Source of the DNA: a virus
Taxonomy: Duplodnaviria; Caudoviricetes
DNA length: 64,000 bases
Strand: one strand, 5' to 3'
IMG/VR virus record: IMGVR_UViG_3300021387_001157
Location: 96,001 to 160,000 of that record
A program made the position numbers and the translations under genes. Below, piece by piece: positions 12,179-62,557 of this stretch (position 1 is the stretch's first letter; the number at the start of each line of letters is the position of its first letter). The notes under the pieces are model-generated. The model made no database searches. It was not told the origin of the DNA and was given only the letters and a program-made list of their open reading frames with translations.

Positions 12179-13008
12179 TGTGGTATCATTTTCATTAATT
12201 CGTTTTTACCATCCATTTCAGACAATATTGGCATAGGAAATGGTTCCCAAAACATTCTCATGGTTGTATCTACACCATCTTTCACGAACTGTTCTGGAAT
12301 CTTTACTTCTTTCTCAATCTTTTTGATAAGTCTACCGAATTTGACTTCAGGTTCGAAGTCGTTCCAGTCAACTCCCTTTTCGTTTTTCAACATTTCAACC
12401 TGTTTGTCTGAATCAACACCGATGAGTTTGTTGTGTGACAACCAAGTCTGTGCTGTCTGCTGCTTCGAGTTACGGATACAGTCGAGCTGCCTGTAGAGGA
12501 ACCAAGCAAAAACGTCGTTGGCTGTAGGAACGTTCCACACCTTGCAATCGAACTGGAATGGTTTCATTGAAAGTATCTGATTTGACAAATTATCGAATTC
12601 TTTCTTCCAATCTTTTTCCACGTCACCTTCTGTACTCTTCATAATATTCTGTGAGAGAAACAACTGATTGAATCTACCGGTTGCAAGTGAAGCGGCAATC
12701 GACAACAATTTTGTCTGTCTCAATCCGAAAAATGAACCAGATGTCGGTTCGTCTTTGATATATAACGAGATTTCGTCTGACTGGACATAGGCGAACTGAA
12801 CACCAGGAATGTTCTCACACAAATACTGTGCAGTTAGGTTCATCAACCCAACAAATATAGGGTCGAATGGAAGTTTGAACCTTTTTTTAATTACTTTTGA
12901 AAATGACCTGCCGTCAAGCATCATAATGATGTGACCATTTGGCATTAAAGAGTGTTCTCCTCCTTTACGATAGTAAAGGCACTTGTCTGCTAATGAATCG
13001 AAAATCAT
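12175..13008 (-). CDS. Thg1-like tRNA guanylyltransferase / 3'-5' polymerase
   Basis: LDGRSFS, YVQSDEISL, FDCK, RQLDCIRNS motifs. Confidence 0.92.
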   Translation of the reverse strand: MIFDSLADKCLYYRKGGEHSLMPNGHIIMMLDGRSFSKVIKKRFKLPFDPIFVGLMNLTAQYLCENIPGVQFAYVQSDEISLYIKDEPTSGSFFGLRQTKLLSIAASLATGRFNQLFLSQNIMKSTEGDVEKDWKKEFDNLSNQILSMKPFQFDCKVWNVPTANDVFAWFLYRQLDCIRNSKQQTAQTWLSHNKLIGVDSDKQVEMLKNEKGVDWNDFEPEVKFGRLIKKIEKEVKIPEQFVKDGVDTTMRMFWEPFPMPILSEMDGKNELMKMIPQ

Positions 13009-14085: not shown

Positions 14086-17000
14086 TTAGAATGTAAATGT
14101 GTCTGTAGATGTTGTTGCCCCATCAACTCTAACAACATCACCACTATTGAATGTTCTCGATGTGAACAAGGCGATATGGTCTGTCACATTAACCGTTTCC
14201 ATCAATGTACCATTGACATATAATTTTGCCGAACTTCCATCGTTTGTGTAGCATTTTATAACCCTGTCGGTTGTTTTGGTGTAGTCTTTACCACATATAT
14301 GGATAAACTTGTCAGTATTGTTCCACTCGGCCTTGTAAAGATAGAACGTGTCTTTCTTCGTAACATGGTCTCTTTCTACAAGACCCTTGTTGTTCAATCT
14401 CCTCAAACTATCATCTGTTGATACGGTTTCACCGTCAAGACATACCGTGTAACCTTCATTTCTGTTGGCGACGGCAATGTCAAACAACTGCCATTCTGCT
14501 GTGAAGAGCAATTGTGGGAAGTTCCTGATGGCGGCAAGTTGTCCCTCATGCAACCACATTTGATATTCAATGTCGTGTCTTTCGTGATTACCTCTTGTTG
14601 TTGTATTCAAAAAGGCATCCGAATGACAATGTTGAGTACCACCACAACCATATTCAGAATATGCAAACGGTTTACTTATTCTATTGACCGTGTTGTTAAT
14701 ACGTGAGTTTAGTCGAGTTGTTGGATTGTTTGAGTTTGTATCAATATACCAACCGGTATAAATATTTCCGCCAAACCAATCAACACCACTTGGGTCATTA
14801 TAGTAACCACTTGGGTTATCATAGCTGTGACTCATAACATAACCAACCAAACGTTCAGAATCGAGACTCTTTATGATTGATGCATAATTCTCAATCTTTG
14901 CTTTTGCAAAAGTCTTGTCATCGGTCGTTGTCTCATTCGACAATCCCCAGAACATAATGCAAGGGTGATTATAGTGTTGGTTGACCATATCTCTATATTG
15001 TCCTTCCAAGTGTGTGTAGTAGTCTTCTGGCATTGTTGATTGCATCTTGTTGACACATGGAACCTCTGTTTGTACAATTATACCCAATCTGTCACACCAG
15101 TCATATACCTCTTTCGGGTGTGGGTAGTGTGCAAGACGGATGAAGTTACATCCGAGTTCATGTATGATTGCAAATTCTTGTGTATAATCTGCTGCATTCA
15201 AAGCGTTTGCTTTACCATCCAAGTCATCGTGCATACATACACCTCTCAAATAATATGGTTGTCCGTTTAGCAAGAAACCTGTGTATGGGTTGTTGTTCAC
15301 TAAAACATTCTCATCGTTTATCACATAACTATAATATCTCAATCCGTAATCTCTCTGGAATCTATGATACAAGGTTCCATTCTTACTTATTTCCAAAGTT
15401 ATAGTGTACATGTGTGGGTCAGAAATACCATTCCACAAGTGTGGATTTTGAATGGTCGTATAGAATGTCATCTCTTCACCATCACTAATTTTCGTATCAC
15501 TCCAGTTATATGTTCCGTCATCGATTGTGCATACAACTGATGAACCCGATGGGATGGTTGTATTGACATAGACTGTGGCCGATGAAGATGTCACGTTAGA
15601 TGTCACATGGAATCCGTCATAACCATATTTTGTTGCTGGAAGACAAGGAGATGTTAGTAGTTTCACATTACCGAGTGTGGCGTTGAAGTTAAAGTCTCCT
15701 GCCGCCGGTGCTAGTGTGCTTCTTGTCTGGTTACAGAGAGCAACCTTGATGTTATTTGTTCCTTGATGGACATAGTTTGATATGTCCGAGAAGAAAGCGT
15801 TATAACCACCCCAATGAGTATCCACCTTTACGTTATCTACATATATGTCAGCAGATTGGTCTGCATGTTGGAACCATAGATACGTTGGTTGTGCTTCCCT
15901 CAAAGCAAAACTTGTTTCGAAATTGAATGTACCTTTTGCATAAGATGACGAATGACCGTCAATCTGGTTTACGGAATATGGTGTCGTTATCATATTGCCG
16001 TTATAAGTCCAAGAATCAAGTATTCTATTTGATGCTTCTATTGGGACATTTGAAACATATACACATTTTTTCAAAGTTACCGTACTTGTGTTTCCACCGA
16101 ATGTTGAATATGCCTCAATTATTGTCGTTGTATTAATTGTTATTGGTGAATTATACACAGAATAATTTCCTGTATTGTTCAACCTATAATAGATAGTTGC
16201 ATCTTGTGTTACACAAGTTATTGTAATTGTGTCAAATCCGTCATAAGAGATAACCGGTGATACAACTGCTGAATCGTTCTGTGTCACCCATCCAGATGGA
16301 ATACCACTTAGACCAGTATCCCATGTTGTGTTACCGTCCTTTACAAATGTACCGGTTGCCGATACGTCTTTTGTCCAGTTCTGTAAACAGTTCGTTGCTG
16401 ACCTATTTGTTGCAAGACATTTGATAAAGTTAAGGTTTGAACATCCTGTGAACATACTACCATAACAATATTGTGCAAGTGATGTTGCAGGAAGTTCTGG
16501 TGCAGTAGTGATTGCAGTTTTTTCAAACATATAGTAATAGCAATACTGTTCAAGGGTTGTTGCTGGCAATTTTGGTGGTGTTGTTAATGACGATGCAAAA
16601 CTAAACATAGCACGATAACAACTTCCTTTTAATGTCGTTGCTGGCAATATGAGATTTTCTGCCGATATTACGTTTGACATTTTAAATATAGAACAGAAAA
16701 TATAGGAATAATTAGGAAGTGTATCATTTCCTATGAAATTATCACCATATAACAAACTATGTATATTACCCTCTATATCAAATGTTGCAGTACCACCTTG
16801 AAATCCCGAATAATTACTCTTGTCTTTGGCGTAGGACGACTCGGTACCCTTAAATCTCACAACATCATTTTGACTTACATTTATTGAAGATGAACTACTT
16901 GCTAACAATGAAGTCCACTCTCCATCGTTTATACTATATTGGATTGTTTTTGCAAAACCAGAACCTATTGAGTTCCAAATGATAGTACCACCAGTCAATA

Positions 17001-19473
17001 CTCTGAATGTCAAATAGTCTTGACTATAATCATGTACGGGATTATAAACACAAGTTTCTGTTACGATACTGCTTGTTCTACCGTGAATGGTTGAATATGT
17101 TTCAACGACTGTATCTGCAAGTATCGGAATCGGTTCTGTGTATTGTGTATAACTTCCTGTACCGTCAAGTTTGTACATAATTGTTGCACCTTGTGTTGCA
17201 CATGTAATAGTTACTTGTGAACAATTGCAAGTTACCACTGGACTTACAAGTATAACTGGATTATATACACAAGTTTCCGTCGTATGCAAACTACTATGTC
17301 CATTCAACTCTGCATATGCCTCTACAATGGTTGTTGCATTGATTGGGAAAGAATCACTATATTCTATGTAATTACCACTATCAAGTTTGTACCAAATCGT
17401 TACACTAGGTGTGTCACATACTATACTGACATATTCGCCATCACAATATATAACAGGTTGTTCTATAACGAATCTGTACTCACAATTTTCTGTGATTGTA
17501 TTACTTGTACGATTATCCAAAACAGAATATGCTTCAACAGTTACGTCTTCACTTATTGCTATCGGAGTAGTGTATGTCAAAAAGTTTCCACTCTCATTAA
17601 GTCTATACATGATTGTTGCATTCTGTGTTGCACAGGTGATAGATACTTGTGTTCCATTACAAGTTATAACCGGCGGATATAATGTAGGTGGTACATATCT
17701 ACACACCTCTGAAACCGTTGCTGTTGTCCTAGTACTTAACGTAGAATATGCTTCAACGGTTGTTGTTGCATTAATTGAGAATGGTACTGTGTATTGGGCA
17801 AATTCACCATCATTGACTCTGTAATAAATGTCTGCACCAATTGTCGAGCATGTTATACTTACCTCTTCTCCGTCACATGTTATCTCTGGTGTCGATATTC
17901 TTGACAATTTCGTTATTTGGAAATTCAAAACATCTATTTTTGAATATCTGTATGGGTCGCCATTTGAATCCAATCCATATCCTACACAAACAGTCAAGTA
18001 CTTGAGTTCTTCTATATCAGGGAATAACTTATTAGACGTATAGACTGTTGTGTTACCAATAAGTTCTTTACAAATAAATTTATCGGTTGCAGCACTTGGG
18101 TCGTATACTATCTGAATATTATATTCTGCAAGCTTGTTTTCTTGCACCCATCTTTGTGGAGTGATTTGAGTGTTTATGTTTGAACCACTTTCAAACTGAG
18201 TACCCAATATGATATACTTGTTGTTATTACTCTGTCTCAACTGGAAACCATACCAAGGTTCTGGGTCAGCCCTTTTCATCGTAAGTATTTGATGGTGGTT
18301 TTCGTTCTGACCGGCGGGGTTATTCGTCACATCAACTATAAAGTGCATATTGAGTACGAAACCATCTGTCATATCAAATCCGTAAAATTCTGTATTAACA
18401 CCATCTCCGTTAAAGTTTTTTTCACCATTTTCATTACCTGTAGTGTCAATATTATATCCAGTTATGACTTCATTGCCTTCAGAGTCATACCCTATTTCCT
18501 GTGTTGAGATGTTACCACTTGTATCACCTTCAACGTTTTCACCCCTTACTGGGTCTCCATTTTCATCAAAATTGGTCGTAGAACCACTGTAACTTCCGTC
18601 AGTATTGTTGATGACGGTACTTTCGGATGAAGTTCCATCCGAATTTGTTGTCTGTGTCTGTGTGGTTGTCGAACCGGTCGTAGCATCCGGAGCCGAAGTT
18701 GTGGATTGTGTACTTGATGAAGTTCCGTCGGAATTTATAGTGGTCGAACTTGTGAACGAACTTCCGTCAGTGGCGGTAGTTGTTGTAGATGTAGTTGAAC
18801 TCCAACTTCCGTCTTCGTTCATAGTCGTACTTGTGCTCTCTGTCGTAACATCTCTGGTGTTTGGGTCTGTTGTCTCGACACTTGTCTCAGTGGTGATACT
18901 TCCGTCTTCGTTTTCAACAATTGTTGTTGCAGAAGTATTACTGTATACGAGTTGGATTGTCTTTGTTGCAGTATATCCAAGATAGGAAACCTGTACGGTG
19001 ATGCTTCCACTATCTAAAATAGTGAAAGCACCCGTACTTTCGATTATTCCGTTATTAATATGTGACGAACCACTTGTTACAGTGATTGTTGTACTACTCG
19101 TGATATTTTCTGAGTTGAACTTAACAATGATGTTTCCTTCCGTTCCAGTTATAGTTGCAGGAGACTCTATAATCAACTCGTTATCGTATGTCACTGTTAT
19201 GGACTTTGTTGCAGTATATGTTCTATTATTGGAAACATATGATGCAGAAACGATTACCACATTGTTTATTGAACCAGATTCAATAAAGACTTTTCCGTTT
19301 TGATTTATGGTGGCATAGTTATTACCACTTGTTATAGACCAAGTTGGTTGAACATCATTTCCATCAAAAGTCGAGGTTAGGTTAAGAGATTTTCCTTGTA
19401 CAGAACTAGGACCAGATATTAAGAATGTGTGTTCAACAACACTTATGTAGTAATATGATGTTCGTCTTGCCAT
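14086..19473 (-). CDS. 1795-aa multidomain protein: Ig-like domains, T/S-rich linker, Fn3/CHB_HEX_C-like repeats, LRR-like segment, C-terminal GH2 glycosidase; probable virion adhesin or depolymerase
   Basis: Repeats PxITCxG..V.I.C.T....I.Y; LPATTL...CY..MF repeats; GH2 motifs RGVCMH, RLAHYP, WGLSNE, YSEYG. Confidence 0.85.
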   Translation of the reverse strand: MARRTSYYYISVVEHTFLISGPSSVQGKSLNLTSTFDGNDVQPTWSITSGNNYATINQNGKVFIESGSINNVVIVSASYVSNNRTYTATKSITVTYDNELIIESPATITGTEGNIIVKFNSENITSSTTITVTSGSSHINNGIIESTGAFTILDSGSITVQVSYLGYTATKTIQLVYSNTSATTIVENEDGSITTETSVETTDPNTRDVTTESTSTTMNEDGSWSSTTSTTTTATDGSSFTSSTTINSDGTSSSTQSTTSAPDATTGSTTTQTQTTNSDGTSSESTVINNTDGSYSGSTTNFDENGDPVRGENVEGDTSGNISTQEIGYDSEGNEVITGYNIDTTGNENGEKNFNGDGVNTEFYGFDMTDGFVLNMHFIVDVTNNPAGQNENHHQILTMKRADPEPWYGFQLRQSNNNKYIILGTQFESGSNINTQITPQRWVQENKLAEYNIQIVYDPSAATDKFICKELIGNTTVYTSNKLFPDIEELKYLTVCVGYGLDSNGDPYRYSKIDVLNFQITKLSRISTPEITCDGEEVSITCSTIGADIYYRVNDGEFAQYTVPFSINATTTVEAYSTLSTRTTATVSEVCRYVPPTLYPPVITCNGTQVSITCATQNATIMYRLNESGNFLTYTTPIAISEDVTVEAYSVLDNRTSNTITENCEYRFVIEQPVIYCDGEYVSIVCDTPSVTIWYKLDSGNYIEYSDSFPINATTIVEAYAELNGHSSLHTTETCVYNPVILVSPVVTCNCSQVTITCATQGATIMYKLDGTGSYTQYTEPIPILADTVVETYSTIHGRTSSIVTETCVYNPVHDYSQDYLTFRVLTGGTIIWNSIGSGFAKTIQYSINDGEWTSLLASSSSSINVSQNDVVRFKGTESSYAKDKSNYSGFQGGTATFDIEGNIHSLLYGDNFIGNDTLPNYSYIFCSIFKMSNVISAENLILPATTLKGSCYRAMFSFASSLTTPPKLPATTLEQYCYYYMFEKTAITTAPELPATSLAQYCYGSMFTGCSNLNFIKCLATNRSATNCLQNWTKDVSATGTFVKDGNTTWDTGLSGIPSGWVTQNDSAVVSPVISYDGFDTITITCVTQDATIYYRLNNTGNYSVYNSPITINTTTIIEAYSTFGGNTSTVTLKKCVYVSNVPIEASNRILDSWTYNGNMITTPYSVNQIDGHSSSYAKGTFNFETSFALREAQPTYLWFQHADQSADIYVDNVKVDTHWGGYNAFFSDISNYVHQGTNNIKVALCNQTRSTLAPAAGDFNFNATLGNVKLLTSPCLPATKYGYDGFHVTSNVTSSSATVYVNTTIPSGSSVVCTIDDGTYNWSDTKISDGEEMTFYTTIQNPHLWNGISDPHMYTITLEISKNGTLYHRFQRDYGLRYYSYVINDENVLVNNNPYTGFLLNGQPYYLRGVCMHDDLDGKANALNAADYTQEFAIIHELGCNFIRLAHYPHPKEVYDWCDRLGIIVQTEVPCVNKMQSTMPEDYYTHLEGQYRDMVNQHYNHPCIMFWGLSNETTTDDKTFAKAKIENYASIIKSLDSERLVGYVMSHSYDNPSGYYNDPSGVDWFGGNIYTGWYIDTNSNNPTTRLNSRINNTVNRISKPFAYSEYGCGGTQHCHSDAFLNTTTRGNHERHDIEYQMWLHEGQLAAIRNFPQLLFTAEWQLFDIAVANRNEGYTVCLDGETVSTDDSLRRLNNKGLVERDHVTKKDTFYLYKAEWNNTDKFIHICGKDYTKTTDRVIKCYTNDGSSAKLYVNGTLMETVNVTDHIALFTSRTFNSGDVVRVDGATTSTDTFTF

Positions 19474-19481
19474 ATTTTAGA

Positions 19482-21782
19482 TTATTGTTGTATTGCTTGT
19501 ATTTGAGATGCTTTATCACTCCAATATTGTGCTCCTTTATATGCCTCTACACTTTCAGTAGGTACATAGATTGTATAATTTGCATGAGTTGGAAGTGTAT
19601 CATATTTTATAGTTGGAGTAGTTGTGTTTAATGATGTAATTGAAGTAATACCACTACACCTATAGAAAGCACCACCTCCAATACTTGTTACTGAGTTAGG
19701 TATTGTGATTGAAGTTAGGCCACTACAACTACTGAAAGCATTATCTCCAATACTTGTCACTGAATCGGGTATTGTGACAGAAGTAAGACCACTACAACCA
19801 TTGAAAGCCCTACTTCCAATACTTGTCACTGAGTTAGGTATTGTGATAGAAGTAAGACCTCTACAACCAGAGAAAGCATTACTTCCAATACTTGTCACTG
19901 AATCGGGTATTGTGACAGAAGTAAGACCACTACAACCAGAGAAAGCACTACCTCCAATACTTGTCACAGAGTTAGGTATTGTGATAGAAGTAAGACCTAT
20001 ACAACCAGAGAAAGCATACTCTCCAATACTTGTCACTGAGTCAGGAATAATTACATTATTACCAATTATATTAATATCAGCACCAGCTAAAGTAGTTTTA
20101 GTACTATCGGTATATAAAAATCCATTATCAAAAATACCATTCCTAACTAATGCACCCCAGTTATTATTATTAGTATCTTCTGCATTTCCAGTATAATTAA
20201 TATTCTTTACTCCATTGAAAGCCCTACTTCCAATACTTGTCACAGAGTTAGGTATTGTGACAGAAGTAAGACCACTACAACCAGAGAAAGCATAATCTCC
20301 AATACTTGTCACTGAATCGGGTATTGTGACAGAAGTAAGACCACTACAACCAGAGAAAGCATAATCTCCAATACTTGTCACTGAATCGGGTATTGTGATA
20401 GAAGTAAGACCACTACAACCATTGAAAGCCCTACTTCCAATACTTGTCACTGAATCGGGTATTGTGACAGAAGTAAGACGAGTACAACCTTTGAAAGCAT
20501 TACTTCCAATACTTGTCACAGAGTTGGGTATAGTGACTGAAGTAAGACCTCTACAACCAGAGAAAGCATAATCTCCAATACTTGTCACAGAGTTGGGTAT
20601 AGTGACTGAAGTAAGACCAGTACAACCTTGGAAAGCACTTTCACAAATACTTTTCACAGAGTTGGGTATTGTTACAGAAGTAAGACTGTAACAATCAGAG
20701 AAAGCAAACTTTCCAATACTTGTTACAGAGTCGGGTATTATTGTATTTTTACATCCAACAATTAACGTATTGGTTGATGTCTCTATAATAGCGTTACAAT
20801 TATTACGACTATCATATTTAGTATTACCATCAGAAACTACTATTGAACTAAGACCACTACAACCACCGAAAGCATAATCTCCAATACTTGTCACAGAGTT
20901 AGGTATTGTGATAGAAGTAAGACCTCTACAACCAGAGAAAGCATACTCTCCAATACTTGTCACTGAATCGGGTATTGTGACAGAAGTAAGACCACTACAA
21001 CTAGAGAAAGCATAATCTCCAATACTTGTCACTGAATCGGGTATTGTGACAGAAGTAAGACCACTACAAGCAAAGAAAGCCCAAATACCAATACTTGTCA
21101 CATCACCGTCAAAAGTAATAATTCCAACCCCATTTTTATAAACATTAGTATTAATTGTTGCACCAAAAACATCTGATTTATATGGAGTCACTACATTTCC
21201 ATTACTACTCGTATAATATATCACAGTTTTTTGTGGTTGTGTTATAGGCATTTCAATCGATTTTGAAATTATCCAGTTATAATCCATAACTTTAGTTGAT
21301 ATTTCAATACCATTATTTGCATGAAGTGTTATTGGTGTTAAATCACCAATTATACATACACTTTGTATAATTGGAACAAGTGTTATAGTCAAATCAGACG
21401 AAGATGTATTTTTTAGTAAGAAATAGTGAATGTACTCGTTACCAAACGAGTTATTGTTCTTTGAAGGAAAATTGATTGGAATTTCAATTGTTGTTCCAGT
21501 AATGTTTACTGCCGTAGAGTCAAATTCAACGAGTGTGTATGAATTATTAGTATTTGTTATTTTGTTGATATAATCATTTGAACCAAAGTATGAAAACATT
21601 TCAGTATCATAATATGTTTGGTCAGATGTGTATTTTTTTGACTGAGTAATTGTCTCAGGTCTAGAAAACCTATCACCGCCGACATATATTGACTTTGACT
21701 TTGTGTCAAAAACAATTACACCAGAGTTTGAATCTTCTGATAAATTAAACCATTTTCTTTTAAATTTTACTTTAGTTGGCAT
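19482..21782 (-). CDS. BspA-type (LRR_5) leucine-rich repeat protein
   Basis: About 18 copies of TSVTIPxSVTSIGxxAFxxCxxL. Confidence 0.93.
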   Translation of the reverse strand: MPTKVKFKRKWFNLSEDSNSGVIVFDTKSKSIYVGGDRFSRPETITQSKKYTSDQTYYDTEMFSYFGSNDYINKITNTNNSYTLVEFDSTAVNITGTTIEIPINFPSKNNNSFGNEYIHYFLLKNTSSSDLTITLVPIIQSVCIIGDLTPITLHANNGIEISTKVMDYNWIISKSIEMPITQPQKTVIYYTSSNGNVVTPYKSDVFGATINTNVYKNGVGIITFDGDVTSIGIWAFFACSGLTSVTIPDSVTSIGDYAFSSCSGLTSVTIPDSVTSIGEYAFSGCRGLTSITIPNSVTSIGDYAFGGCSGLSSIVVSDGNTKYDSRNNCNAIIETSTNTLIVGCKNTIIPDSVTSIGKFAFSDCYSLTSVTIPNSVKSICESAFQGCTGLTSVTIPNSVTSIGDYAFSGCRGLTSVTIPNSVTSIGSNAFKGCTRLTSVTIPDSVTSIGSRAFNGCSGLTSITIPDSVTSIGDYAFSGCSGLTSVTIPDSVTSIGDYAFSGCSGLTSVTIPNSVTSIGSRAFNGVKNINYTGNAEDTNNNNWGALVRNGIFDNGFLYTDSTKTTLAGADINIIGNNVIIPDSVTSIGEYAFSGCIGLTSITIPNSVTSIGGSAFSGCSGLTSVTIPDSVTSIGSNAFSGCRGLTSITIPNSVTSIGSRAFNGCSGLTSVTIPDSVTSIGDNAFSSCSGLTSITIPNSVTSIGGGAFYRCSGITSITSLNTTTPTIKYDTLPTHANYTIYVPTESVEAYKGAQYWSDKASQIQAIQQ
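19640..21100 (-). repeat. 69-bp near-identical tandem repeats (LRR units) in three blocks
   Basis: Recurrent ccaatacttgtcac...ggtattgtga.agaagtaagacc.ctacaacc. Confidence 0.92.
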
Positions 21783-50467: not shown

Positions 50468-50606
50468 CAGGAGTGGGAGGATTCGAACCACCGTCTACGG
50501 TTTTGTGACTATATATCAATTTCTCAATATATAACCTAGAATTAAAGGCTCTCACAGGACCTCACCCTGTATGGAGACCGTCATTCTGCCACTGAACTAC
50601 ACTCCT
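50468..50606 (-). tRNA. tRNA-Trp(CCA) with a 68-nt insert in the anticodon loop (50504-50571)
   Basis: ACGGT-CTCCA[insert]AA-ACCGT. Confidence 0.8.
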
Positions 50607-51514: not shown

Positions 51515-51678
51515 TTGTTAAATATACAAGAACCGACCGGACTCGAACCTGCACTGACTGTCGTATTAAAACCTTTCGGTCTACCGTCCTACATTTACAA
51601 GGGACTCACCCCTTTCCAGTACTCATACAATTCGTGGCGAGAGTATACCAATTCCTCCTCACAGTCCTTGTCTATTTG

Positions 51679-51755
51679 TGTTGCTGGTTGGATTCGAACC
51701 AACGACCTTCTGTGTATCAGACAGATGCTCTAAAAACCAACTGAGCTACAGCAAC
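51679..51755 (-). tRNA. tRNA-Ile(GAT)
   Basis: Loop CTGATAC. Confidence 0.85.
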
Positions 51756-51763
51756 ATATTCTG

Positions 51764-51940
51764 TGGTGAGGGTAGGATTCGAACCTACGAACTCCGAAGA
51801 GGGCAGATTGCTCTGTATGCCAGACTCGAACTGACTATTTATGTTTATCATAAATTCTCCCGAATGAGTTTATACAGAGTTTGATTTTCAGTTTTCTCTG
51901 TATTACAGTCTGCTGCCATTAACCACTCGGCCACCTCACC
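51764..51940 (-). tRNA. tRNA-Tyr(GTA) with a 94-nt insert in the anticodon loop (about 51810-51903)
   Basis: GCAGA-CTGTA[insert]AA-TCTGC; long variable arm. Confidence 0.82.
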
Positions 51941-52130
51941 AAATTTGCAAGCTACAAACGTTTTCTCGGAACTTAACTTGCTGTGTTGTACTTCCACAAT
52001 AGTTTTGGGTGCTTTATCCTCACACCTCGTGGTTCTGATTTATCTAGTCAATTCAGAACAAACCCTGCTTTGCTCCGTTCCAATGCACTTATTGTCTTTG
52101 GCACTAGAATCGCTTAACAGTACAATCTTG

Positions 52131-52207
52131 TGCAGACAATGGGACTCGAACCCATAACCACCCACCGGTTTAGAGCAGGCACTCTACCATCATTGAGTTA
52201 TGTCCAC
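52131..52207 (-). tRNA. Atypical tRNA, possible CTA (amber) anticodon
   Basis: CTCTAAA in an imperfect anticodon arm; an alternative fold gives a 9-nt loop. Confidence 0.45.
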
Positions 52208-52321: not shown

Positions 52322-52444
52322 TCGGGAGGGTGGGACTCGAACCCACGACCACGGCTACCCAAAAGCTATTAGAAAAACGTTGCTGTTTGATTCTTTACCA
52401 AGAATCTATCATTTACGTGCTCTAACCAACTGAGCTACCTCCCG
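52322..52444 (-). tRNA. tRNA-Pro(TGG) with a 49-nt insert at 28/29 (52367-52415)
   Basis: CG[insert]GCT-TTTGGGT-AGCCG. Confidence 0.8.
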
Positions 52445-53141: not shown

Positions 53142-53261
53142 CGGAGAGAGTGGGACTCGAACCCACGACTACGGTCGTGACAGGACATTGAAGAACGTTG
53201 CTGTATGATTCTTTTTCAAGAATACTCTATTTACGTGTTCTACCAACTGAACTACCTCTCC
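53142..53261 (-). tRNA. tRNA-Asp(GTC) with a 47-nt insert at 28/29 (53187-53233)
   Basis: CG[insert]GTC-CTGTCAC-GACCG. Confidence 0.8.
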
Positions 53262-59124: not shown

Positions 59125-59242
59125 CAGGGTGGGTAGGATTCGAACCTACGTCACGGCTACCAAAAAGCAAAGAAAACGTATTGCTGTAAGATTCTTTCAC
59201 AAGAATCAAAAATACGTGTCCTAACCACTAGACGACCACCCA
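59125..59242 (-). tRNA. tRNA-Gln(TTG) with a 46-nt insert at 28/29 (59169-59214)
   Basis: CG[insert]GCT-TTTTGGT-AGCCG. Confidence 0.8.
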
Positions 59243-59337: not shown

Positions 59338-59396
59338 CAAGGTTCTTCTTTCGACTTTTTCCACAAATCTTTAAGAAAGTTGCTGTATGAACCTTT
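59338..59396 (-). ncRNA. Free-standing ACAGCAA stem-loop RNA
   Basis: AAGGTTC-ATACAGCAA...GAACCTTG. Confidence 0.65.
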
Positions 59397-59399
59397 ACT

Positions 59400-59750
59400 C
59401 TGTGAGAGTTGAACAATCTCTCGTTCAATTCCCATCTCCGTTGTTTTGGTACAAGGAGAAAACCTGCCCTTAAAGACATTGGTCTAAACTACCACCGATT
59501 AGGCAGCAGCGAGCATCACCATTTCGTTGGTGTTGTTGTTAAAGTTGCCATTTACTGACAAGATGAGTCTCTACGCTTTTCATAATGATACAGCATCAAA
59601 TCCAAGTCATCCCCATGTTACCTCGATAGTTCTGTCTCGTATAGACCGCCCAATGTTGAATGTTTTTTCTACACTGAACAAACTGGTGGAGATGTTGGGG
59701 TTCGAACCCAAGTCTACCATACTTTCCTAAAAGTTTCAAACGAAACCCAT
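59400..59750 (-). ncRNA. ssrA: Circularly permuted (two-piece) tmRNA
   Basis: Acceptor piece ends CATCTCC-A-CCA at 59684; coding piece starts GGGGATG at 59614; G3-U70; tag frame 59549-59499 encodes GNFNNNTNEMVMLAAA*. Confidence 0.85.
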
Positions 59751-59835
59751 TTGTGATGTCACGGGAGTCGAACCCGTCAAAATTCCAAAGACATCTGATT
59801 CTATTTATGTTTTTTTATTTTCGAAATTTTTTTAG

Positions 59836-59909: not shown

Positions 59910-60175
59910 ATTTTGTTGAATATCACACCGGAACTCCCTTTGGTAATTACTTAATGGATATTCCACTTTATCCATCCAACACTCACTGTGTTGTTGTTGG
60001 TTATCTGTTCCGATTACAAGCAGCACACTTGATGATGTGGAAAAAAGTCTTACTTTGTTCACGGTTATTTGCCATTCACCGTTACTCCAACCGTACCGAC
60101 TACCTATCAGCAATCGAGGTTTTACGTCAGTCGTATTGACCCATTTGATAAAACATCCTGTGATTTTCAACATTG

Positions 60176-60249
60176 TGGTCCTGGAGGGACTTGAACCCCC
60201 GACTCGCTGATTATGAGTCAGCCACTCTGACCAACTGAGTTACAGGACC
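60176..60249 (-). tRNA. tRNA-Ile2/Met(CAT)
   Basis: Loop CTCATAA. Confidence 0.9.
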
Positions 60250-61541: not shown

Positions 61542-62381
61542 TCAGATGGTGTAACGACAATTCCTGAAAGAAGTCTCTTCGTCAAAACCGTGTTTTCTTA
61601 TTTTTATGAGATTTTCACTCCATTCTTTCGATTTACGGTCTTGTACAATTTCGTGAAGAAGACTCTCTTCTTTTTCGAGTTTCTCCCTTTTTTTCTCTCT
61701 CACGAACTTCTTGTAGGCGGAATCACGCTCATATCTAGCACGTGAGTATTCGGGAGTTCTCTTTCCGAACTCTATAACTTCACCATCAATGACGGGATGA
61801 GCCTTTCTATATAGTTCGACAGGTAAAGGATAGAAAGACACCATTTTCGAAATTTTTTCGTACTCTTGTGGTGTTATCGTCTCCGTGAAAAGACGATGCA
61901 GTCTGTCCTTTCCAATCTTTTTCACGAGACTCAAAATCTCAGTCTTAGTGAAGTTCTCCACATTAAAGGTGTATCCTGTCACAACTCTATTGTCAATGAG
62001 AGCCGTTGGCACTTTTTTGTGAAACATTGAGATTCTCTCATCTTTGGTGATATTTCCGACTTCATCGACAACATATTCGTTGTATTTTGAATGTGGATGT
62101 GTGATTGGATAAAGTTCTGAGTGTATCAGGAAATGTCCGTCATAACCATATCCGAATTTCTCACGGATGTTATGGATGAGGGTTCGCCGACACTCGCCGT
62201 AGTTTTCTCCGACATGTTTTTCCCAAAATCTGTTGATATAGGAGAAAACCTTACTTCTACGACACCACTTCTTCTCATAAAAGTCATAGAAATCACCATT
62301 TTTTTTACCGCTGTAACAGAATGTGTCCTTTGTGCAGGATGCATGTTGTACGGATTCTTCGTTTTTTTTAATTTTTTTCAT
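61542..62381 (-). CDS. Basic hypothetical protein, paralog of 40194-41054
   Basis: Full-length similarity. Confidence 0.75.
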   Translation of the reverse strand: MKKIKKNEESVQHASCTKDTFCYSGKKNGDFYDFYEKKWCRRSKVFSYINRFWEKHVGENYGECRRTLIHNIREKFGYGYDGHFLIHSELYPITHPHSKYNEYVVDEVGNITKDERISMFHKKVPTALIDNRVVTGYTFNVENFTKTEILSLVKKIGKDRLHRLFTETITPQEYEKISKMVSFYPLPVELYRKAHPVIDGEVIEFGKRTPEYSRARYERDSAYKKFVREKKREKLEKEESLLHEIVQDRKSKEWSENLIKIRKHGFDEETSFRNCRYTI

Positions 62382-62472
62382 AGTATTTATCCTTAGTGTT
62401 ATATACTTCGGATAAAACTAGAATTATAAATTTCGTGATTCATTTTTTTTACTTTTTAGACGTTAATATTTG

Positions 62473-62557
62473 TGCCCAAGGTGGGACTCGAACCCACACC
62501 CCCTCAACGAGGACAACATTTTGAGTGTTGAGTGTCTACCAATTCCACCACTTGGAC
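62473..62557 (-). tRNA. tRNA-Leu(CAA)
   Basis: Class II body; loop CTCAAAA. Confidence 0.88.

Follow-up and report, generated by a model that had tools for sequence, protein, structure and literature searches.

The DNA considered here, hereafter the window, is a stretch of 64,000 nucleotides (nt), positions 96,001 to 160,000 of the IMG/VR virus record IMGVR_UViG_3300021387_001157, which has 193.8 kilobases (kb) and an estimated completeness of 67%. Its minus strand contains a transfer-messenger RNA (tmRNA) gene whose 3' half stands before its 5' half, in a dense array of 34 tRNA genes that all lie on the same strand. We conclude, with a probability of roughly 85%, that this is a functional circularly permuted ssrA gene belonging to a jumbo phage from ruminant-gut metagenomes, which probably infects Bacteroidales. 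The original prediction, made from the sequence alone, was that of a phage-encoded circularly permuted two-piece tmRNA, and this identity is borne out since it is upheld by the program ARAGORN, by the Rfam model RF04321, by covariation and tag conservation among relatives and by a gene for the tmRNA partner SmpB in the same phage genome.

The acceptor half ends with CATCTCC-A-CCA at 59684 on the minus strand, preceded by a T arm UUGGG-UUCGAAC-CCCAA, and the 5' half, GGGGATG, begins at 59614 (-) after a spacer of 69 nt (59683-59615); strand, end, start and spacer length are all those first proposed. The acceptor stem, which had been read as fully paired and as carrying the G3-U70 determinant for alanine, has indeed 7 base pairs (bp) with G3:U70 and a discriminator A, as also drawn by ARAGORN. 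This program returned a "tmRNA* permuted" at 59408-59776 (-), with a complete tRNA-like domain bearing G3:U70, the 3' tRNA domain placed at 59722-59684, the resume consensus present and the same tag as had been proposed. Covariance models led to the same result: RF04321 (tmRNA_permuted) matched with 63 bits for a gathering score of 47 and with E = 8e-10 for the entire 64-kb window, which is far above chance, and the gene of a close relative (G002) scored 68.2 bits. With the one-piece model RF00023 (cut-off 47 bits), we obtained only a truncated match of 26.9 bits to the 3' part of the gene. The range first given for the element was 59400-59750; its start is located about 45 nt further upstream. 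Its parts are as follows.

59684..59753 (-): acceptor piece, about 70 nt (ARAGORN, RF04321 alignment; the 5' end, 59753, is deduced from the upstream tRNA-like element)
59750-59742, 59733-59729 and 59722-59715 (-): acceptor-piece strands of helices P2c, P2b and P2a, respectively (pair counts)
59711-59695, 59694-59688, 59687 and 59686-59684 (-): T arm, CAUCUCC, discriminator A and encoded CCA of the acceptor piece
59615..59683 (-): intervening segment (spacer), 69 nt, whose removal is needed to expose the CCA end (alignment)
59435..59614 (-): coding piece, conserved core (ARAGORN, pair counts, RNAalifold)
59614-59608, 59595-59588, 59580-59576 and 59571-59563 (-): within the coding piece, GGGGAUG, followed by a D-loop analogue, then the strands of P2a, P2b and P2c, then the resume context UAAAU
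59507-59502/59496-59491 (-): stop-codon hairpin of the coding piece
59485-59482/59477-59474 (-): second hairpin of the coding piece
59458-59452/59443-59436 (-): terminal hairpin of the coding piece
59397..59434 (-): lineage-specific 3' tail with the hairpin UUGAAC..GUUCAA (alignment; common to the loci L055-58 only)

The position of the 3' end of the coding piece is uncertain, and the 3' tail may or may not belong to the mature molecule. The reading frame of the tag was confirmed: GNFNNNTNEMVMLAAA* begins with GGC at 59549 and is closed by the stop UAA at 59501-59499 (-); UAAAU precedes it, and ARAGORN gives an identical tag, which matches none of those recognised by the program. It is 16 residues long and starts with Gly.

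Relatives of the gene were found via homologues of a neighbouring open reading frame (ORF) of 279 residues (window 61542-62381), in IMG/VR and in ENA/Logan assemblies. Seven further loci (L002, L052, L053 and L055-58), some of them on scaffolds of 377-390 kb, possess the same permuted gene; together with the window, this makes eight loci and six distinct sequences. The scaffolds of the clade in this size range include ERZ919312 scaffold_1, ERZ28653753 scaffold_1 and ERZ28614488 scaffold_9. In the seven relatives the neighbouring ORF is 47-97% identical to that of the window. The frame of the tag, whose lack of conservation in homologues had been named as a refutation, is intact in all eight loci with neither frameshift nor stop, and the codon differences, read by eye from the alignment, amount to four synonymous changes and two replacements (F/Y and E/N). 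The tag is GN(F/Y)NNNTN(E/N)MVMLAAA across loci, the relatives having GNYNNNTN[N/E]MVMLAAA. The permuted order is the same in the eight loci, and the columns of the tRNA-like domain (acceptor stem with G3:U70, discriminator A, CCA, and T arm with a UUCGAxx loop) are invariant in the six distinct sequences. Further searches added little: four short contigs around homologues of the neighbouring ORF contained no tmRNA, scans with a 5'-end pattern yielded only a one-piece copy from a sister phage (L028) and a duplicate of L002, and scans for the tag and the resume context returned no new member.

We then have to consider the pairing of the two pieces. A structure of 67 pairs drawn by hand was counted on the six distinct sequences, that is on 402 pair cells, of which 97.8% are paired, versus 39-50% when the partners are slid by 1-3 columns. 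Helix 2, made up of P2a (59722-59715/59595-59588), P2b (59733-59729/59580-59576) and P2c (59750-59742/59571-59563), comprises 22 bp and is 100% paired; ten of its pairs are changed in one strand only, and in two others both strands are changed in a compensatory manner. An instance in P2c is AUGGGUUUC/GAGACUCAU of the window, to which ACGAAUUUU/GAAAUUCGU corresponds in L055. Two hairpins located 3' of the tag also covary, as judged from pair counts and RNAalifold. Of the two inter-piece helices initially suggested, TGCTGTAT/GTATGGTA corresponds to P2a and is paired throughout, with three of its eight pairs varying on one side yet still pairing. The other one, TGAACGAGA/TTTCGTTTG, had to be rejected: its first strand is absent in L002, L052 and L053, its second is changed without compensation in L055/L056, and the proposed helix strand UGAACGAGA falls in the 3' tail (59397..59434) and is not conserved. 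The real third helix is P2c, formed by AUGGGUUUC (59750-59742) with GAGACUCAU (59571-59563). Cofold energy was not relied on as support, since its z of -2.8 versus shuffles is only modest and the T arm was mispredicted.

The phage also encodes proteins with which such an RNA could operate. An intact SmpB is present in the same genome, outside the window (G000:C1:43927-44352; PF01668, 175.7 bits), and G002 has one too. The same SmpB, with 98% identity, was found on an ENA scaffold of 387 kb (ERZ919312 scaffold_1; cluster index of 13 blocks, longest contig 0.2-1 megabases), and a 76%-identical one on a scaffold of 390 kb. The latter SmpB is also present on a 29.8-kb contig, JAFNQP010000900.1 (L048, GCA_017386025.1), from a metagenome-assembled genome labelled Prevotella sp.; because the neighbours of its SmpB match those on the 390-kb phage scaffold, this contig is evidently a mis-binned phage fragment. 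Beyond the phage copies, all the organism-named SmpBs in the best 120 matches are from Bacteroidota, with 56-60% identity. Similarly, in a scan of species genomes the SmpBs of Bacteroidota were 50-57% identical, and most of those from Bacillota among the matches listed were 42-47% identical. A ClpP homologue with an intact frame of 232 residues is likewise encoded outside the window (L286, G000:C1:172171-172698, -; PF00574, 240 bits), and also in G002. This protein could degrade tmRNA-tagged proteins or serve in head maturation.

Several observations speak against a functional permuted tmRNA. The RF04321 score of 63 bits is below that of all 17 other phage permuted tmRNAs tested (79-150 bits). 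The tag ends with LAAA and not with the usual ALAA or LAA, so that it may or may not be a strong degron. The spacer of the window lacks a hairpin and 39 nt that all relatives have retained. It is 108-109 nt long in all of them, and its hairpin covaries (CCUUGGGCGG../..CCGCCAAGG in L002, CUCUGGGCGG../..CUGCCGGAG in L055) but is decayed in the window, as read by eye from the alignment; with this decay and the 39-nt deletion, the structure of the spacer is thus dispensable. As to the partner proteins, no ClpX-type unfoldase (ATPase) was found in the 193.8-kb record, which is estimated to represent 67% of the genome. Finally, no pseudoknot is supported, PK1 included: RNAalifold and manual checks, methods unable to exclude one, gave hairpins only, and the candidates UGGUA/UACCA, CUGCC/GGCAG and GUUUU/AAAAC do not covary and are mismatched in relatives, the latter according to a by-eye reading of the alignment. 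However, this last point is consistent with the reduced number of pseudoknots in two-piece forms (PMC3968760). The first G of the coding piece (G1) and the resume codon are separated by 65 nt. Given the lack of support for any pseudoknot and a distance of just 12 nt between P2c and the resume codon, the two-piece RNA is compact, its pieces measuring about 70 and about 180 nt.

Both outer ends of the gene abut tRNA-like elements, and the features concerned are listed below.

59754..59796 (-): mini tRNA-like element, 43 nt (fold of -12.9 kcal/mol as drawn; conservation)
59799..59826 (-): AT-rich block, conserved, which immediately precedes the tmRNA unit and contains the palindrome TTTCGAAA (59826-59819)
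L002 2926-2999 (-): tRNA-Phe-like gene with the unusual anticodon AAA
L052 12744-12817: tRNA-Phe-like gene, same anticodon
L053 13296-13369: tRNA-Phe-like gene, same anticodon

The mini element shows a 6-bp acceptor-like stem (59795-59790/59760-59755), a tmRNA-style D-loop motif UUGGAAUUUUGA, a 5-bp T stem (59777-59773/59765-59761) with the loop UUCGACU, and a discriminator A. Its last base is the one immediately preceding the acceptor piece, and five of the six distinct sequences have retained it. The exception is L053, in which it is replaced by a gene that resembles tRNA-Ile but has an enlarged D region, and whose acceptor strand stops at the identical base before CAAAUGGG. As an observation in its own right, this L053 gene (about 12835-12937 (+), of tRNA-Ile(GAU) type) stands in place of both a tRNA-Ile(UAU) and the mini element, and ARAGORN makes no call there. 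The mini element probably signals the processing that generates the 5' end of the acceptor piece. Its own charging appears unlikely because it has neither G3:U70 nor a paired 1:72.

On the downstream side, a tRNA-Phe(AAA)-like gene starts directly after the conserved core (..GGUAAAU) in L002, L052 and L053. This gene, which could encode a genuine tRNA or serve just to mark a processing site, is missing from the window, where its place is occupied, as in L055-58, by a hairpin and an ACAGCAA stem-loop module. This module, AAAGGUUC-AUACAGCAA-..-GAACCUUG, lies at 59338-59396 (-) of the window, between the tmRNA and a tRNA-Ser, and is also found in L055-58. Separately, we noticed that the sister phage L054 encodes a TROVE/vWA Ro60-like protein and that G000 has a phrog_850 RNA-binding protein.

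The 3' ends of the tRNA-type genes are also instructive. None of the 34 tRNA genes of the window has an encoded CCA, the acceptor piece of the tmRNA being the sole case among its tRNA-type genes. In 22 of the 34 the discriminator is followed by CAA, a trailer also borne by the mini element, and position 74 is a C in 31 of them (62472-62557, 60175-60249 and 51678-51755 are among these genes). Moreover, the one-piece tmRNA of the sister phage L011 ends with ..CUCC-A-CAA. The CAA trailer looks like a 3' processing signature shared by phage tRNA-type genes. Upstream of the unit, the block TTTCGAAAA..AAAACATAAATAGAA is near-identical in the window, L002, L052 and L055-58, and is absent in L053, where the tRNA-like gene replaces it. 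It is a possible phage promoter; a scan for the sigma-70 consensus found nothing at this place.

Since both gene ends abut tRNA-like elements, maturation is probably performed by tRNA-processing enzymes. Cutting of permuted tmRNA precursors by such enzymes has been published (PMC11915505), and the processing that we envisage at the outer ends, at G1 and in the spacer agrees with it. Whereas the anatomy of the gene, its conservation and covariation, the intact SmpB gene and the tRNA-like elements on its flanks are shown by the present data, for the processing sites, the charging, the tagging, the fate of the tagged proteins and the benefit to the phage we infer the following scheme. A single precursor, made with or beside the phage tRNA array, would comprise the mini tRNA-like leader, the acceptor piece, the spacer and the coding piece. 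An endonuclease of the RNase Z type could cut after the discriminator of the leader and so free the acceptor piece at about 59753, RNase P could cut 5' of G1 (59614), and trimming of the spacer would stop at the encoded CCA (59684). The 3' end of the coding piece may, in some relatives, be set by RNase P acting at the downstream tRNA-like gene. The two resulting RNAs, of about 70 nt and about 180 nt or more, would be held together by the 7-bp acceptor stem and the 22-bp helix 2 (P2a, P2b and P2c). Alanyl-tRNA synthetase is predicted to charge this RNA via G3:U70, and the phage SmpB to bind the tRNA-like domain, upon which the complex would enter stalled ribosomes. Translation would resume at GGC, adding GN(F/Y)NNNTN(E/N)MVMLAAA to the nascent chain and marking it for proteolysis. 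The phage would presumably benefit by keeping ribosomes available at a time when host mRNA is being degraded or RNAs are cleaved by host defences.

The permutation of ssrA, found in three bacterial lineages as well as in organelles, is a textbook example of convergence, and one would wonder where the present gene comes from. The original prediction was that of a possible independent permutation in a Bacteroidales phage. The Bacteroidota-like SmpB, together with the one-piece form of the host phylum and of sister phages, goes in this direction; the origin of the permutation itself is unproven, and sequence similarity does not discriminate. We place at slightly under even odds the hypothesis that the split is independent of the alphaproteobacterial, betaproteobacterial and cyanobacterial lineages, and that it arose from a one-piece tmRNA of Bacteroidota type captured by phages of Bacteroidota, through tandem duplication and loss of the outer parts. 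Such a route is compatible with a functional tmRNA. Indeed, five of five Bacteroidota genomes chosen by SmpB similarity have a standard tmRNA of 367-402 nt, with tags of nine residues that start with Gly (GENNYALAA, GENSYALAA, GESNYALAA and GENNYAYAA). The tmRNA database, with 97,179 sequences in total (PMC11915505), holds 24,380 standard versus 48 permuted tmRNAs for Bacteroidota, and no full-length match to the permuted gene was found in 401 Bacteroidales genomes. Furthermore, the sister phages L011, L054 and L028 have a one-piece tmRNA (RF00023; 101 bits for L011) with the tag GNNTYRLAA, which in L011 and L054 is at most 0.3 kb from the same conserved ORF, and the phage SmpB resembles those of Bacteroidota, to which it is 50-59% identical. 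Two further compact permuted tmRNAs with a Gly-start tag are present in IMG/VR, L295 (GEKQTQFAMAA) and L296 (GENKTEMAMAA); the latter is identical to the window at 19 of the first 20 nt, and the tag end is shared.

The lineage models have been considered in the same perspective. The window gene obtained 20.2 bits with alpha_tmRNA (RF01849, cut-off 50), where only the tRNA-like core was matched, 28.7 bits with beta_tmRNA (RF01850, cut-off 84) and 29.5 bits with cyano_tmRNA (RF01851, gathering threshold 70). As controls, eight other phage copies pass the alpha model with 58-97 bits, and L161, L163 and L164 pass the beta model with 88-157 bits. On the other hand, failure with these models is weakened as a proof of a new lineage, because 9 of the 17 other phage permuted tmRNAs fail all three as well. 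The loss of PK1 and the short distance from G1 to the resume codon had to be abandoned as unique traits for a comparable reason: 7 of 58 other phage copies have a distance of 61-68 nt, and this distance and the compact layout recur in phage forms whose tag starts with Ala. Outside the tRNA-like domain and the tag, no significant similarity exists between the permuted and the one-piece phage forms (z = 1.5-1.9 for the coding piece), and within these two regions the similarity to Ala-start permuted phage tmRNAs equals or exceeds that to the Bacteroidota type. The Gly start could also reflect an adaptation to the host, and no intermediate form appeared in the scans for the tag and the resume context. 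If the permutation is independent, it probably predates this phage clade, since Gly-start permuted forms also occur in other phages. We put forward only tentatively, with the odds somewhat against it, a broader proposal: the compact Gly-start two-piece tmRNAs of Bacteroidota phages (this clade, L295 and L296) would stem from a further independent ssrA permutation in a phage-borne Bacteroidota one-piece copy and not in a cell, their ends having been recruited to tRNA-like punctuation that host enzymes mature, and, with the phage's own SmpB and possibly ClpP, they would serve a private rescue and tagging pathway.

Another hypothesis lies in the phage pool of permuted tmRNAs. The gene could descend from an already permuted, alpha-like form that moved into a Bacteroidota phage and whose tag drifted or recombined towards the style of the host, which would likewise be compatible with a functional tmRNA. 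We regard this as a serious possibility, though one that we would rather bet against. A generic pattern scan of IMG/VR gave an ARAGORN permuted call in more than 50 of 79 loci among the matches listed, almost all of them with AND../ANN.. tags, and several share with the window GGGGAUG/CAUCUCC, a GAU..GUAGAC junction and the same compact layout. The best identity over the tRNA-like domain of all tmRNAs compared, 77%, is that of one such locus, L195, and in local alignment with the coding piece the alpha-type marine locus L018 comes first (z = 9), but the latter had been picked by a pattern derived from the window. However, when 58 other permuted phage tmRNAs are considered, the local scores of 20-30 span only the 5' acceptor strand and the D-loop. 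In addition, the Ala-start copies inspected have a leader motif UGAU before G1, where the present lineage has AACAU or AACAC, the SmpB belongs to the Bacteroidota type, Gly-start tags are a hallmark of Bacteroidota, and the lineage is absent from deposited phage genomes as searched by blastn.

Altogether, sequence similarity does not resolve the ancestry. Local alignment with shuffles versus one-piece phage, Bacteroidota and alpha-type tmRNAs proved uninformative, the comparison with L018 being biased by its selection, and neither the ranking of 70 tmRNAs by identity over the tRNA-like domain nor the ranking by tag region discriminates between ancestors.

Lastly, it is very improbable that the gene encodes no working rescue RNA, being instead a decoy against host trans-translation, a relic undergoing decay or a set of tRNA fragments that happen to adjoin in the tRNA array: the decayed spacer of the window, the lowest RF04321 score among those compared, the unusual tag ending, the adjoining mini tRNA-like element without coding sequence (CDS) and the precedent of the CDS-less tmRNA of phage DS6A, as cited in PMC11915505, would fit such a view, but the tag frame is intact with mostly synonymous codon differences although the neighbouring protein is down to 47% identical to that of the window, compensatory changes are found in the helices joining the pieces, G3:U70, A73 and CCA are all retained, and the two genomes examined (G000 and G002) have each kept an intact SmpB gene of their own.

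In the relatives, the genes just upstream of the tRNA/tmRNA array include those for an RNA ligase (PF09414) and for a CCA-adding enzyme with PolyA_pol and HD domains, at the positions listed here.

L052 5562-8148: RNA ligase and CCA-adding enzyme
L053 6415-8523: RNA ligase and CCA-adding enzyme
L055 5156-8160: RNA ligase and CCA-adding enzyme

The matching position in the present genome, just past the end of the window, shows a stop-to-stop frame of 483 codons (G000:C1:160161-161609). The array itself includes a tRNA of amber-suppressor type with the anticodon CUA (window 52130-52207 (-)), labelled "Pyl" by ARAGORN and also present in L052, L053 and L055; despite this tRNA, reading with the standard code yields long ORFs according to stop-to-stop statistics. 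Rfam also gives five tRNA matches of 118-177 nt, which correspond to tRNA genes with large inserts.

50468-50606 (-): long tRNA match (Rfam)
51764-51940 (-): long tRNA match (Rfam)
52322-52444 (-): long tRNA match (Rfam)
53142-53261 (-): long tRNA match (Rfam)
59125-59242 (-): long tRNA match (Rfam)

Elsewhere in the window, the region 14086-21782 (-) encodes two large surface-type proteins, one of 1795 residues with GH2 and chitobiase-like domains and one of 766 residues with BspA-type leucine-rich repeats, and two more BspA-type proteins are encoded in other parts of the genome. BspA-type repeat proteins are common in gut anaerobes.

If an independent permutation is indeed the right explanation, a further origin in phages of a one-piece phylum would be a data point on the question of why the splitting of tmRNA keeps being selected, and it would mean that phages, beyond borrowing a core RNA of translation, can remodel it. 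The tRNA-like elements at both outer ends provide a concrete and testable model for the excision of the pieces. A phage endowed with a tmRNA, SmpB and ClpP may moreover run its own quality-control or protein-turnover pathway during the infection of rumen Bacteroidales. The gene matters for annotation as well, since such phage contigs get binned into Bacteroidota genomes; mis-binned contigs may explain some of the 48 "permuted" Bacteroidota tmRNAs of the tmRNA database.

A parallel can be drawn with several known systems. The phage Melnitz carries a permuted tmRNA, and 53 unique permuted forms, 50 of them from aquatic phages, have been counted among 133 phage tmRNAs (PMC9004378, 2021). As phage two-piece tmRNAs are thus published, the headline of the original prediction is not new, and its list of taxa known to have permuted tmRNAs (alphaproteobacteria, some cyanobacteria and betaproteobacteria, and some mitochondria) omitted them. 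Huge phages have also been described to carry tmRNAs and SmpB, the form of the gene not being mentioned (PMC7162821). A literature search found no paper on permuted tmRNA in Bacteroidota phages, and blastn found no similar sequence in deposited phage genomes. The kind is known, and the lineage is one without description in the literature searched, characterised by a 16-residue tag that starts with Gly, no supported pseudoknot, tRNA-like end markers and a one-piece host phylum.

Like the genes of the Methylophilales phage Melnitz, of pelagimyophages and of cyanophages (PMC9004378), the window gene is a permuted ssrA in a lytic phage that ARAGORN calls tmRNA*, with an acceptor piece, a spacer and a coding piece bearing a private tag. 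However, those genes are assigned to the alphaproteobacterial or cyanobacterial lineages of their hosts (PMC9004378), whereas the present one passes no lineage model; in our control set, 8 of 17 permuted copies from IMG/VR pass the alpha or the beta model. Here, moreover, the tag starts with Gly and not with Ala, the likely host phylum has the one-piece form, a phage SmpB gene comes with the tmRNA, and an Rfam scan detected no glutamine riboswitch in the window.

The two-piece tmRNAs of Alphaproteobacteria, of a betaproteobacterial group and of cyanobacteria (RF01849, RF01850 and RF01851; Keiler 2000 and Sharkady and Williams 2004, as cited in PMC3968760 and PMC3978253) have in common with it the gene order and a break downstream of the tag. 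In both cases the acceptor stem and helix 2 hold the pieces together and maturation by tRNA enzymes is expected; pseudoknots are reduced in the bacterial forms, and none is supported in the window gene. The window gene differs from these bacterial forms by its scores of 20-30 bits (cut-offs 50-84), by its 65 nt from G1 to the resume codon with no supported PK1, by a 16-residue Gly-start tag ending with LAAA and by the tRNA-like elements at both outer ends.

The one-piece tmRNAs of Bacteroidota and of the sister phages L011 and L054 (RF00023) differ from the permuted gene in being continuous (342-402 nt), with PK1 and later pseudoknots and with tags of nine residues; the phage copies have no encoded CCA, and their overall similarity to the permuted form is not significant. 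Nevertheless, they share with it the GGC (Gly) resume codon and a tag end ..CUCGCUGCC followed by the stop. Furthermore, the copies of L011 and L054 also lie in a phage tRNA array, no more than 0.3 kb from the same conserved ORF, and the one-piece tmRNA of L011 has the T-loop UUCGACU and the CAA trailer in common with the mini element of the window.

This mini element can itself be compared with the CDS-less tmRNA of mycobacteriophage DS6A, which according to the citation in PMC11915505 is reported to block host trans-translation. As far as that citation describes it, the likeness lies in a bare tmRNA-style tRNA-like domain without a reading frame, here of 43 nt. In contrast to the DS6A RNA, however, the element of the window has neither G3:U70 nor a paired 1:72, it is the leader of a complete tmRNA, and in L053 its place is taken by a tRNA-like gene.

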